64,000 nucleotides of DNA from positions 320,001 through 384,000 of the forward strand of contig CAWHTE010000007.1 in assembly GCA_963832165.1 (NCBI GenBank), read 5' to 3'. Origin of the DNA: an uncultured delta proteobacterium. GTDB lineage: Bacteria; Myxococcota_A; UBA9160; SMWR01. The position numbers and the translations under genes were made by a program. The notes beneath the pieces were generated by a model. That model did no database searches. It saw nothing but the letters and a program-made list of their open reading frames with translations, and was not told the origin of the DNA. Positions 43,128 to 61,373 of this stretch are shown in pieces (within the stretch, counting starts at the first letter, position 1; each line of letters opens with the position of its first letter).

Positions 43128-43301
43128 CGGGGGGTCTCCTGTGCTTTCGGGCGCGTGAGGGGAGCACGGTCGCAGGCTCGGTGACCCCGCGTCAAGCGCC
43201 GGGTACCCTCGGCCGAGAATCTCGAGAAGGACTCGCCTCGCACCCCCCACCCCCAGGTGGGCGGTGTCGGGGCTTTCGTGCGTGCGCGCACAGGAAGTTC
43301 G

Positions 43302-46949
<3,648 letters not shown>

Positions 46950-54850: not shown

Positions 54851-55459
54851 TCAGTCGAGTCCGAATCGCTCCTGCAGCGCGCCGAGCGCGCGCGCGGTCA
54901 CGGCCTCCGCGCTGCCCGACGCGTCGACGCGCACGAGGTAGGGGCGCTCGATCGCCGCGAAGATCGCCGCGACCTGCGTCAGGTACTCGCCGTGCTCGAA
55001 GCGCGGATCGGCCGCACCGCGCGCGCGCGTTCGCGCGAGGCCCTCGGCGGCGGGCAACTCGAACAGCAGCGCGGCGTCGGGCGCGGGGAACTCGGCCTCG
55101 CTGTCGGCGAGGATCCTGCGCCAGTCGAGGCCGCGCGCGCCCTGATAGGCGACGGTCGAGAGGAAGTAGCGGTCGGTGAGCACCCAGCGGCCCGCCGCGA
55201 GCGCGGGCTCGATCGTGCGCGCCACGTGCTCGCGCCGATCTTCCACGAACAGCGCGAGCTCGCGCTCGACGGACAGGTGATCGCCCCCGCGCAGCAGCGC
55301 GCGCAGGCGTTGCCCGGTCGGGGCGTCGCTGGGCTCGCGCGTCTGCACGACATCGCGGCCGCGCTCGCGCAGCGCCTGCGCGAGCCGCACCGCCTGCGTC
55401 GACTTGCCGCAGCCGTCGAGCCCTTCGAGCGCGACGAGCGTCCCCCGGTTCACGGCCAT
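54851..55459 (-). CDS. tmk: Thymidylate kinase
   Basis: EGLDGCGKSTQ, TREP, DRY..STVAYQG. Confidence 0.95.
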   Translation of the reverse strand: MAVNRGTLVALEGLDGCGKSTQAVRLAQALRERGRDVVQTREPSDAPTGQRLRALLRGGDHLSVERELALFVEDRREHVARTIEPALAAGRWVLTDRYFLSTVAYQGARGLDWRRILADSEAEFPAPDAALLFELPAAEGLARTRARGAADPRFEHGEYLTQVAAIFAAIERPYLVRVDASGSAEAVTARALGALQERFGLD

Positions 55460-55526
55460 CGCGTGGCGATCCGTTCACGCCCGGGGCCGAGTCGAGGCTG
55501 CGGTGCAACGGCACATCGCCCCAGCG

Positions 55527-55542
55527 TGGCATGCCGCTTGCT
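55527..55542 (+). promoter_or_regulatory. Sigma54 (-24/-12) promoter
   Basis: TGGCATGCCGCTTGCT versus consensus TGGCACG-N4-TTGCW, with correct GG-N10-GC spacing. Confidence 0.65.
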
Positions 55543-55551
55543 CCCGAGAAA

Positions 55552-55690
55552 GGCGCGCCGCAAGGCGTGCCCGCCAGCACCCCTCTAACGGGACCGGGGG
55601 TCGGCGGGTTCTCGGACGCCGGGCGGGGGCATTGGCATGCCGCGGGAATTCAAACGGGGTGAGGCCCGTGGCTGGCTCCCGCCCGGCGTT
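55552..55690 (+). ncRNA. Candidate structured sRNA (three stem-loops)
   Basis: Starts at the predicted sigma54 +1. Hairpins at 55552-55571 (GCAA loop), 55572-55606 and 55615-55690. G·U pairs form only on the + strand. Confidence 0.55.
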
Positions 55691-55702
55691 CAACCGAGGT
55701 GG

Positions 55703-56020
55703 CTAGATCTTGCCCTGGAGCATGAACGCGATCACGAGCCCGTAGATCGCGATCGACTCGATCAGCACCATGCCGAGGATGAAGTTGACGAACATCGCGC
55801 CCGCAGCGCCCGGATTGCGCGCGATGCCCGCGGTCGTGTTGCCCGCGGTGAGACCCTGGCCGATGCCGCAGCCGAGCCCCGCGAGGCCGACCGCGAGGCC
55901 CGCGCCGAGCGCATAGCCCCAGCTCGAGCCGCCATCGCCCGCGCCTTCCTGGGCCATCGCTGCGAGCGGCGCGATTACGAACATCAGGGTCCACAGAACG
56001 GTCGATCGAAACTTGCGCAT
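55703..56020 (-). CDS. atpE: F0 ATP synthase subunit c with N-terminal leader
   Basis: GxGxGxG, ARNPG, IESIAIYGLVIA. Confidence 0.95.
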   Translation of the reverse strand: MRKFRSTVLWTLMFVIAPLAAMAQEGAGDGGSSWGYALGAGLAVGLAGLGCGIGQGLTAGNTTAGIARNPGAAGAMFVNFILGMVLIESIAIYGLVIAFMLQGKI

Positions 56021-56063
56021 GGATCCAGTCACTCCTTTGGTGGGTTGTGCGCGCGAGTCGCCG

Positions 56064-57538: not shown

Positions 57539-57590
57539 CAAGTCTCATGGACTTCGCTCGCCTTCGGCTCGCTGCGCGAAACTTGCGGCC
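57539..57590 (-). repeat. Dispersed element copy encoding the HemL C-terminus and stop codon, with imperfect terminal inverted repeats
   Basis: GGCCGCAAGTTTCGCGCAGCGAGCCGAAGGCGAGCGAAGTCCATGAGACTTGC on the minus strand. Confidence 0.95.
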
Positions 57591-58864
57591 CGAAATGCCG
57601 CGCGCGCAGCGGAGATCGTGGCGGCGATCTGGGCCGGACGGTGAGCGAGCGAGACGAAGCCCGCCTCGAAGGCCGAGGGCGCGAGATAGACGCCCGCGTC
57701 GAGCATCGCGGCGAAGAATCGGCGGAAGGCCGCCGCGTCGGCCTTCTTCGCATCCGCGAAGTTGCGCACGGGCCCCGCGTGGAAGAAGAAGCCGAACATC
57801 CCACCGATCGCGGCGGACGTGAACGGAACCCCGGCTTCGGCCGCCGCGGCCGCGAGACCGTCCGCGAGTGCCCGGCTCGTCTGCTCGAGCTGCGCGTAGA
57901 CGCGCGGCTTTGCGAGCCGGTCGAGCGTCGCGCAGCCGGCCGCCATCGCGAGCGGGTTGCCCGAGAGCGTCCCGGCCTGATAGACGGGCCCGTCGGGCGC
58001 CATGCGGTCGAGCAGCTCGGCCGGACCGCCGTACGCGGCCGCGGGCAGGCCCCCGCCCACCACCTTGCCGAGGCAGGTCAGATCGGGTGCCACGCCGAAG
58101 CGCTCCTGCGCGCCGCCGCGCGCGACGCGGAAGCCCGTCATCACCTCGTCGAAGATCAGGAGCGCGCCCGCGCGCGTGCACAGCTCGCGCAGCCCGGCGA
58201 GGAAGCCCGGCTCCGGCAGCACGAGGCCCATGTTGCCCGCAACCGGCTCGACGATCACGCACGCGATCTCGCGTCCCCAGCGCGTCATCGCATCCGACAC
58301 CGCGCCGAGATCGTTGTAGGGTGCGGTCACGGTGAGCTCGGTGAACGCCTCGGGCACGCCGGGCGAGCCCGGGATCCCCAGCGTCGCGACACCGCTGCCT
58401 GCGCCGACCAGCAGCGCGTCGGCGTGGCCGTGGTAGCAGCCCTCGAACTTGAGGATCCGCGGCCGACCCGTCACCGCGCGCGCGAGCCGCAGCGCGCTCA
58501 TCGTCGCCTCGGTGCCCGAGGAGACGAAGCGCACGCGCTCGATTCCGGGCACCGCGGCCACCACGCGCTGCGCGAGCGCGGTCTCGAGCTCGGTCGGCGC
58601 GCCGAAGCTCGTGCCGTGGCGCAGCGCCGCGCGCACCGCGCGCAGCACGTCCGGATCCGCGTGCCCGAGGATCATCGGGCCCCACGACCCCACGTAGTCG
58701 ATATACACGTTGCCGTCGGCGTCCCAGATCCGCGCGCCGCGCGCGCGCGAGATGAAGCGCGGCGTCGCGCCGACCGCCCCGAACGCGCGCACGGGGCTGT
58801 TCACGCCGCCCGGGATCACGCGCCGCGCGCGCTCGAACAGGCGCCGCGAGCGTCCCGTCTTCAC
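57545..58864 (-). CDS. hemL: Glutamate-1-semialdehyde 2,1-aminomutase
   Basis: [56 protein letters not shown]. Confidence 0.96.
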
Positions 58865-61373
58865 GCGGTGCCGCTGCCCGGCTCCGGGACGTCCCGCTCG
58901 GCCAGGCGCGCCATCGACACGATCTTCTCGTCGTCCGCGAGGTTCATGATCCGCACGCCCTGGGTCGCGCGGCCCATCGTGGAGATGCCCGCGACGCGCG
59001 CGCGCAGCACCTTGCCACCGTCCGTGATCAGCATGACCTCGTCGTCGTCGACCACCTGCGCCACCGACACGACCGGCCCGTTTCGCGCGGAGGTGCGGAT
59101 CGTGATGATGCCCATGCCACCGCGCCGCTGGACCCGGTAGTCCTCGAGCGGCGTGCGCTTGCCGTAGCCGCGCTCGGTCACCGTGAGCACGGTCGCGACG
59201 GGCGAGAGGATCTCCATTCCCACCACGCGGTCGCCCTCGCGCAGCATCATGCCGCGCACGCCACCCGCAGCGCGTCCCATCGCGCGCACCTGCTCTTCGG
59301 GGAAGCGGATCGACTTGCCGTCGCTCGTCGCGATGATCACCTCGTGGTGGCCGTTGGTGCGGCACGCGGCGATCAGCTCGTCGTCGTCGTCGAGTGTGAT
59401 CGCGATGATCCCGCCGCGGCGCGGGTTCGAGTACGCGTCGAGGCGCGTCTTCTTGATCACGCCCTTGCGCGTGCACAGAAGCACGTAGGCCTCTTCGTCG
59501 AACGCCCGCACGGGCAGGGTCGCGCGCACGCGCTCGCCGTCGGCGAGCTGGAGCACGTTCGCGAGCGATTTGCCGCGCGCCGCGCGCCCGAGCTGCGGCA
59601 GCTCGTGAACCTTGAGCCAGTGCGCGCGTCCGCGCGTGGTGAAGAACAGGATGTAGGCGTGGGTCGAGGCGATGAACAGGCGCTCGACGAAGTCCTCCTC
59701 GCGCGCCTCCATGCCCTTCACGCCCTTGCCGCCGCGGTGCTGCGCGCGGTACTCGGTGAGCGCGTTGCGCTTGATGTATCCGTGGTGGGACACGGTCACG
59801 ACCATGTCCTCCTCGACGATCAGGTCCTCGGTGGTCAGCCCCTCGACCGCCGCGGCCAGCTCGGTGCGCCGCTCGTCGCCGTACTGCTCGCGGATCTCGG
59901 CGAGCTCCTCGACCACCACCTCGCGGATCTTCTCGTCGCTCGCGAGCAGGGCCTTCAATTCCTCAATCTTTGCGCGCACCTCCGCGAGCTCGTCCAGCAC
60001 GCGCTGGCGCTCCATCGCGGTGAGCGAACGCAGTCGCATTTCGAGGATCGCGTTGGCCTGGCGCTCGGAGAGCTCGAAGCGGGTGATCAGCGCCGTGCGC
60101 GCAGCGCCCGTGTCGTCGGCTCCGCGGATGATCGAGATCACCTCGTCGAGGTGGTCGAGCGCGATCGCGAAGCCCTCGAGCAGGTGCGCGCGCGACTCGG
60201 CCTGCGCGAGGTCGTAGGTGGCGCGCCGCACCACCACCTCGCGCCGGAAGTCGATGAAGTGCTGGAGCGCCTCCTTGAGCGGCAGCGTCTGGGGCCGGCC
60301 GTTCACGAGCGCGAGCAGGTTCACGCCGAAGGTGGTCTGCAGCGGCGTCTGCTTGTAGAGCTGGTTCAGCACCACGTCGCCGGGCGCGTCCTTCTTGAGC
60401 TCGATCACGACGCGCATGCCTTCGCGATTGCTCTCGTCGCGCAGGTCGCCGACGCCGTCGATCTTGCCCTCGCGCGCGAGCTCGGCGATCCGCTCGAGCA
60501 TCGACGACTTGTTGACCATGAAAGGGATCTCGGTCACGACGATCCGCTCGCCGCGCTTGGTCGTCTCCATCTCGGCGCGCGCGCGCACGGTGAGCAGACC
60601 GCGGCCCGTCGCGTAGGCGGAGCGAATCCCCTCGTGGCCGCAGATGATCGCGCCGGTCGGGAAATCGGGTCCGGGCATCTTCTCGAGCAGGTCGTCGAGC
60701 GTGCAACCGGGGTTGCGCACGACGAGCGTGATCGCGTCGATCAGCTCGCGCAGATTGTGCGGCGGCACGTTGGTGGCCATGCCCACCGCGATCCCCGAGG
60801 AGCCGTTCGCGAGCAGGTTCGGGAAGCGCGACGGCAGCACCACCGGCTCCATCATGCCGCCGTCGAAGTTCGGCACGAAGTCGACCGTCTCGCGGTCGAT
60901 GTCGCGCAGCATCTCCTCGGCGAGCCGCGTGAGGCGCGCCTCGGTGTAGCGGTAGGCGGCCGCCGGATCGCCGTCGATCGAGCCGTAGTTGCCCTGGCCG
61001 TCGACGAGCGGGTAGCGGAGCGAGAAGTCCTGGGCCATCCGCACCATCGAGTCGTAGACGGCGCTGTCTCCGTGCGGGTGGTAGTGCTTGAGCACCTCGC
61101 CGACCACGCCGGCCGACTTCGAGTAGCCGCGCGTCGAGAGCAGCCCTTCCTGCTGCATCGCGTACAGGATCCGCCGATGCACGGGCTTCAGGCCGTCGCG
61201 CACGTCGGGCAGCGCGCGGGAGACGATCACCGACATCGAGTAGTCGAGGAACGAGCGCCGGACCTCGTCCTCGATGTTCACGGGCGGCGAAAACGGCTCC
61301 GACGGCGCCCCCCGCCCGGCGGCGGGGGCTCGGGCGGCTGGGGCGGGGGCGTGATCTCGATCCCGTCACTCAT
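58861..61373 (-). CDS. gyrA: DNA gyrase subunit A (probable 1-nt indel in the G-run near 61310; main ORF 58861..61281)
   Basis: [29 protein letters not shown], GyrA-box QHRGGKG, beta-pinwheel repeats. Confidence 0.96.

Follow-up and report, generated by a model that had tools for sequence, protein, structure and literature searches.

A candidate sigma54-activated non-coding RNA gene between tmk and atpE in an uncultured delta proteobacterium and its class

What does a sigma54-type promoter motif serve when it points along the plus strand into a gap whose two neighbouring genes both lie on the minus strand? The question is raised by positions 55460-55702 (243 bp) of the window, that is, the whole 64,000-nucleotide stretch of an uncultured delta proteobacterium that was analysed. 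The gap is bordered by tmk (dTMP kinase; 54851..55459, minus strand; TIGR00041 of NCBIfam, 126 bits against a cut-off of 83) and by atpE (ATP synthase F0 subunit c; 55703..56023, minus strand; TIGR01260 of NCBIfam, above its cut-off), and these matches agree with the neighbours named in the original prediction, which had proposed a three-stem-loop small RNA between them. The comparison with relatives points to a predicted non-coding RNA of about 138 nt at 55553..55690 on the plus strand, with both protein genes outside it; it was delineated with the covariance models R1 (built without the promoter) and R2 (the two-order core model), and its ends are placed by the promoter spacing and the base of the third hairpin. 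That the gene, its strand, structure, promoter and independence from the neighbours are established by this comparison of sequences we consider highly probable, while transcription, the ends of the RNA and the activator are what we infer. The whole statement, i.e., an independent sigma54-activated non-coding RNA gene whose RNA acts by protein binding, is given a probability of roughly 45%, protein binding as the mechanism being a guess.

The -24/-12 motif, TGGCATG-N4-TTGCT, occupies 55527..55542 on the plus strand (TGGCATG at 55527-55533, TTGCT at 55538-55542) and points into the gap as had been described, so that the predicted +1 falls near 55553. It stands at a fixed distance from the RNA in 70/70 genome loci, 50 of which had been found by queries containing the promoter; the independent set was composed of 120 metagenome loci picked by loop 2 of the RNA alone, on contigs all longer than 1 kb, and there the motif was present at 109 of the 114 loci with enough flank, against 0/116 in a mirror control. 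The 5.5-Mb genome holds only 71 occurrences of a loose sigma54 pattern (on one strand, about 0.0006 per 100 bases), and chance therefore falls far short of explaining a motif at such a fixed distance in the homologs. The five metagenome loci without it comprise two matches that fall in a coding gene by chance, two one-base deviations and one locus with unrelated upstream DNA (L271:1-200), which carries a close relative of the window's RNA and may represent promoter loss or a chimeric contig. A second exact copy of the promoter's TGGCATGCCGC lies at 55633-55643, inside the third hairpin, and was taken as coincidence because it is not conserved in homologs.

Two GTTCAC repeats on the plus strand, a distal one at 55448..55453, overlapping tmk codons 3-4 on the opposite strand, and a proximal one at 55473..55478, are putative sites for an activator (enhancer-binding protein). 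GTTCAC is found within -120..-40 of the -24 GG at 53/69 loci, with 2.5% expected, and upstream at 74/106 loci of the independent metagenome set. The homologs fall into two orders of the class (which we take to be GTDB UBA9160), namely order 1, to which the window belongs, and a second order, presumably SZUA-336; the tandem repeats are spaced by 25 bp in the former and by 22 bp in the latter, and in order 1 they lie mostly at -115/-90, in the window at -80/-55. Although GTTCAC can overlap the first tmk codons in order 1, 16/19 second-order loci keep it with no tmk upstream, and it is therefore read as an activator site. Between GTTCAC and the promoter an AA...TT element was seen in 42 and 39 of 50 loci, counts that come with no background control, and by analogy with glmY, as the accessible part of PMC3045617 describes it, this element may be an IHF site. 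The promoter region of the window is shorter and lacks it. The genome of the window encodes 26 matches to the activator domain PF00158, 19 of them strong, and a gene which we take from its sequence to be rpoN; the cognate activator of the GTTCAC sites was not picked out among these activators. Thus the promoter spacing, the upstream sites with rpoN and activators, and a covarying non-coding structure (see below), all expected of a sigma54-dependent small RNA, were found together. Only one other sigma54 promoter of this genome has a tandem GTTCAC-like site, C2:126598 (near 126527-126610); it precedes a membrane protein gene, the co-regulation of which with the RNA is possible, judging from the sites. 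At L367:1463-3458 ptsN comes directly after rpoN and no hpf separates the two; the window's genome encodes two HPF-family genes at other places.

The predicted RNA begins with P1 (55554..55569, plus strand), a 6-bp hairpin with a GCAA tetraloop, in which 5/5 outer pairs change on both sides and which is dispensable. A GNRA hairpin at +1 had been foreseen, and it does pair base by base at 55552-55571, but 55570-55571 form part of P2 (its outer stem), which limits the conserved stem to the 6 bp of 55554-55569. P2 (55570..55608, plus strand) is composed of an outer stem (55570-55575/55603-55608) and an inner stem (55579-55584/55596-55601), closed by loop 2 (55585..55595, plus strand; 11 nt, CUAACGGGACC), in which GGGAC is nearly invariant; the loop ends in ACGGGACC and its closing pair varies between U-G, C-G, U-A and A-U. 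P3 (55615..55690, plus strand) contains a 16-bp basal stem (55615-55630/55675-55690) and an 8-bp upper stem (55639-55646/55665-55672), both predicted originally and both upheld when the pairing was checked base by base; 13/17 and 10/10 of the P3 pairs change on both sides, and the internal loop at 55631-55638 is asymmetric with a conserved GG. Loop 3 (55647..55664, plus strand) is a variable A/U-rich linker followed by the Shine-Dalgarno-like ACGGGGUGAG, with which it ends across homologs at a length of 15-24 nt, and its GGGGTGA is kept in 48/48 aligned homologs and 112/117 independent metagenome loci. Loops 2 and 3 have ACGGG in common, and the nearly invariant apical loops ACGGGACC and ACGGGGUGAG are likely the working parts of the RNA. 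The three-stem-loop design holds at the locus, but the family core has two hairpins (P2 and P3), because P1 is missing in the 19 second-order loci and in L041 (genome G037), a homolog from order 1 whose loss of P1 was a separate event. An alternative fold in which loop 3 would pair with the CCCC strand of P2 was rejected, since second-order sequences vary in that strand and keep loop 3 constant.

Covariation was scored in alignment A1, which holds 48 full homologs of the window's order, L041 (run of N) and L035 (near-duplicate) having been excluded from the 50 located. Under the P1/P2/P3 structure 94.3% of its 2150 cells are paired and 34/45 pairs change on both sides; none of 500 shuffles reaches any measure, a test inflated by the relatedness of the A1 sequences, with which the slid controls (42-50% paired) and the two-order alignment (46 sequences, 22/26 pairs changing on both sides) concur. 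The cells with G-U outnumber those with A-C by 224 to 37 in A1 and by 128 to 12 in alignment A4. Read on the plus strand, the P1 loops of the 48 homologs include 11 of GNRA and 15 of UNCG type, which makes 26/48 such tetraloops, against 1 on the minus strand. Because both biases follow the strand of the promoter, the RNA is assigned to the plus strand, on which the five G-U pairs noted earlier (55555/55568, 55584/55596, 55615/55690, 55628/55677 and 55642/55669) were recovered. Folding alone favours this strand only mildly, since the z value is -3.71 for the plus strand (0/200 shuffles as good) and still -2.72 for the minus strand (3/200), and it is the comparative data that decide. The distance between loop 2 and loop 3, taken modulo 3, is distributed 27/19/24 over 70 loci, i.e., it occurs in all three frames, so that no peptide or reading frame is conserved through the RNA.

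The arrangement of the neighbouring genes gives a further line of argument. In order 1 it is tmk<, RNA>, atpE<, with tmk at 50/51 and atpE at 49/51 loci, and the RNA, counted as far as the base of P3, measures 135-151 nt; the second order shows atpE>, RNA>, tmk>, with tmk at 17/19 loci (the remaining two are contig ends), atpE within 600 nt in 13/19, at 2.6 kb in two and not within 3 kb in four, and an RNA of 117-122 nt. The genes atpE and tmk are co-oriented in both orders, and only the cassette of promoter and RNA is inverted. The RNA is thus considered an independent gene and not the atp terminator, and its reading as a terminator or tmk leader is untenable, because the cassette flips while the neighbours keep their order; this natural inversion is an unusually clean proof of independence. 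Together with the promoter spacing, the covariation and the strand biases it supports the plus-strand stem-loop RNA under a sigma54-type promoter that had been proposed. The 24 RNA runs listed share less than 0.2 of words, and a few of the contigs examined from four of them cover homologs of the RNA, such contigs carrying neither strand nor transcript ends; one contig, from run X8, extends from the promoter to atpE, for which DNA or atp read-through would give the same picture.

Conservation of the spacer in relatives, proposed as a check along with covariation, was found as well. At E<=0.01, BLAST matched the spacer in 55/61 genomes, in a few of which the match is short and due to chance, and R1 detected the RNA in 144/151 genomes of the class and in 103/104 high-quality ones, as a rule in single copy; among the matches listed, a second R1 match reads one and the same locus on its other strand, apart from one genome with two contig-end pieces. 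Outside the class, R1 had a significant match in 0/123 genomes and R2 gave five matches only (E 0.11-0.36, 24-29 bits), taken as chance, in searches that scored 20-23 candidates per genome and may miss distant homologs. At 40 atpE loci of other classes there was no R2 match below E 3.5, no tmk beside atpE and no sigma54 motif beside it (one lay 709 nt away), the viral contigs and plasmids searched gave 0 matches each, and no paralog of the RNA was found in the window's genome. A pattern scan of named records listed at least 118 matches, among which 109 were chance and nine score with the models; among the matches listed, these nine are labelled Myxococcota (five), Deltaproteobacteria (one) and otherwise (three). 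The three last (L091, L171 and L173) are full-scoring copies under depositor labels outside Myxococcota/Deltaproteobacteria-unclassified, and are more likely mislabelled or mixed bins than cases of transfer. For regulatory small RNAs, turnover inside one genus or family is the rule. A single copy in 103/104 good genomes, with loops and sigma54 promoter frozen, is the behaviour of housekeeping RNAs, and the RNA is probably a core regulator. It appears to be a real class-wide non-coding RNA family of a known general type, apparently undescribed: no description was found in the open literature, and subscription papers or the supplements of motif-discovery studies could contain one. The family is fit for curation and may serve as a marker for the class, and it gives a first access to regulation by RNA in a lineage that is uncultured, in which CsrA is patchy and the window's genome yielded no Hfq.

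Which of the known RNAs does it resemble? The Rfam check advised for the locus returned two chance microRNA matches only, with E about 3, and no family, and scans extended to 10 homolog loci likewise gave chance microRNA hairpins only. SRP RNA, RNase P RNA and tmRNA were rejected, as none of their models matches at the locus; the SRP RNA of this genome lies elsewhere, at C11:122348-122447, and what are presumably RNase P-type end motifs stand on C11 near 441.3-441.6 kb. The CsrB/RsmY/RsmZ and CrcZ sponges carry a repeated short motif in their hairpin loops. The present RNA also repeats a loop motif and has one GGA in loop 2 (compared with the accessible part of PMC4152352), but it offers just two loops and this single GGA, unlike those sponges. 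A CsrA sponge was rejected: CsrA is encoded in 24/61 class genomes and in 0/9 of the window's family, and the loops are invariant regardless. With GlmY/GlmZ of Enterobacteriaceae it shares a sigma54 promoter with repeated activator sites, accompanied by IHF at glmY in the available text of PMC3045617, as well as core-genome conservation and a RapZ encoded in the window's genome; it differs by the absence of any Rfam match (at the locus and 10 homolog loci), of an adjacent glrK-glrR or other adjacent activator genes and of a detectable Hfq, and by GTTCAC repeats in place of TGTC-N10-GACA. Pxr of Myxococcus xanthus (RF01812), a blocker of development that is processed to a short form, is, according to the accessible portions of PMC5684412 and PMC5568312, a small multi-stem-loop RNA present in single copy in a myxobacterial host and transcribed from a sigma54 promoter with an upstream enhancer region, features which the present RNA shares; pxrK/pxrR lie upstream of Pxr, whereas atpE and tmk flank the present RNA, and its G-rich invariant loops are class-wide, whereas Pxr belongs to one suborder.

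How may such an RNA act? In the mechanism we prefer, an enhancer-binding protein at the tandem GTTCAC sites would activate sigma54 RNA polymerase, which would make an almost fully paired RNA of 120-150 nt; its rigid stems would present the two apical loops with their common ACGGG, together with the GG internal loop, to a protein, and the RNA would serve as a decoy or scaffold in the way GlmY or CsrB do. The available part of PMC4152352 describes GlmY as a protein decoy. Protein binding is put forward because the loops are frozen while the stems swap pairs, the loops share a motif, the RNA offers almost no single-stranded seed, a U-tract comes after P3 in just 7/46 sequences, the window's genome (89% complete) gave no Hfq, and the complements of the loops are not enriched at the ribosome-binding sites of its 4720 predicted genes. 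As to the partner, CsrA would be the obvious candidate, and it was found in only 24/61 class genomes and not in that of the window; RapZ is encoded there, yet the GlmY/GlmZ models give no match. A base-pairing seed or a tertiary contact would account for the invariant loops just as well.

The possibility that the RNA is an Hfq-independent base-pairing regulator of Pxr or GlmZ type, whose G-rich loops would pair with C-rich mRNA leaders (e.g., anti-SD strands) and turn translation on, is a minor but real one. The promoter class and stem-loop design are common to Pxr, the first loop of which is essential (PMC5684412, accessible part), and glmS is activated by GlmZ through the opening of a hairpin that masks the SD (PMC4152352, accessible part). 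Leader sites complementary to loop 3 exist in the window's genome, and one, before an act/qrc-like operon, is complementary to both loops; however, this leader was rejected as a target, since the site occurs in only 1/50 orthologous leaders. The complement counts are at chance level with no enrichment at gene starts, and class-wide invariance of the loops would require an equally invariant target. Conservation of the loop-3 complementary sites was compared for this one among about 55. Two other places in the same genome may be recorded here. At L369 (C3 near 53803, minus strand) a non-coding loop-3 complement forms part of a hairpin that masks an SD, a loop-2 complement adjoins it, and the ORF that follows looks broken; at L370 (C4 near 314103) a non-coding loop-3 complement stands just after a small gene, which from its sequence we presume to be pilin-like.

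Doubtful, though of wider consequence, is that the RNA joins the core machinery as a sigma54-controlled, housekeeping-grade RNA of a new kind, binding RNA polymerase or, via the SD-like loop, the 30S anti-SD; if so, the signal of an enhancer-binding protein would be coupled to global transcription or translation across the class, and with polymerase or the ribosome as partner the RNA would be a new global regulator beside 6S and Ms1. Its ribosomal form, in which loop 3 mimics a Shine-Dalgarno sequence, pairs with the 16S anti-SD and lets the RNA hold or tune 30S subunits, is improbable. Between loop 3 and the 3′ end of the 16S rRNA of this genome 7 pairs form (-10.9 kcal/mol), and no reading frame is conserved through the RNA, but 2.6% of 6600 random 19-mers do as well and loop 2 pairs poorly (-4.0). 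Besides the anti-SD, no rRNA complement longer than 7 bases was found among eight short patterns. HPF is present in 57/61 class genomes, which leaves no hibernation gap to fill, and replacement of HPF by the RNA was rejected on this count.

Similarly improbable is an RNA that binds RNA polymerase and complements or replaces 6S, as Ms1 does in actinobacteria (Ms1 binds the core polymerase; PMC4191392, accessible part). Like 6S (RF00013) and Ms1, the present RNA is single-copy, lineage-wide and highly structured at 120-190 nt, with a housekeeping-like spread, and 6S is hard to find in the class: RF00013 was detected in 6/41 genomes, and a class-trained 6S model in 10/101 at E<1e-5, five of these being training sequences. 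But 6S is one rod with a central bubble, whereas the present RNA consists of separate hairpins behind a sigma54 promoter and has no 5′-3′ closing stem around such a bubble. RF00013 has no match at the locus, and six genomes hold a real 6S at another locus in addition to the present RNA, so that identity with 6S was rejected. The 6S searches scored 28-47 candidates per genome, and the patchiness may be an artefact; the scarcity of 6S over the class (L079-L084; L366) is either real loss or search failure. The window's genome gave no 6S, and neither zapA nor the position corresponding by synteny to the 6S locus of G050/G052 yielded one.

A cis element, be it an atp F0 terminator, a tmk leader or an antisense brake on atpE/tmk, is largely refuted and very unlikely. 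The site between atpE and tmk is retained throughout the class, and in the second order tmk begins right after P3 on the same strand, which makes read-through from the RNA into tmk likely there. Nevertheless, the cassette is inverted between orders with the neighbours unchanged, the G-U and tetraloop biases follow the promoter strand, and at 4/19 second-order loci no atpE was seen up to 3 kb away. The original prediction had named the atp terminator as what the long stem would otherwise be, an alternative refuted by the inversion. A U-tract follows P3 in 7/46 sequences on the RNA strand and in 1/46 on the other (atp) strand, the orientation is not tied to atpE, and no terminator was found.

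A diverged homolog of Pxr is scarcely credible, for although the phylum (by record titles) and sigma54 are the same and some homologs have, in the 5′ strand of their P2, a 10-base C-rich likeness to the Pxr stretch that a probe implies (PMC5568312, accessible part), RF01812 has no match at E<=10 at the locus or at E<=0.5 at 10 homolog loci and was found in 0/151 genomes, a search in which no positive control responded, the upstream gene is tmk (50/51 order-1 loci) or mostly atpE (13/19 within 600 nt) and not pxrK/pxrR, and Pxr itself is, in the accessible portions of PMC5684412 and PMC5568312, recent and limited to Cystobacterineae; the original prediction, which claimed no homology with Pxr, was right to confine the likeness to design.

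Two repeats lie apart from the RNA gene. A 13-residue translated stretch recurs within mfd, where hemL ends, and ahead of metK (window 43257-46949 and 57545-58900; L367 near 5600), which suggests a repeated palindromic DNA element that also lies in frame within genes. A tandem duplication of about 45 bases is present upstream of a sugar-kinase-like gene (L366:240-325).
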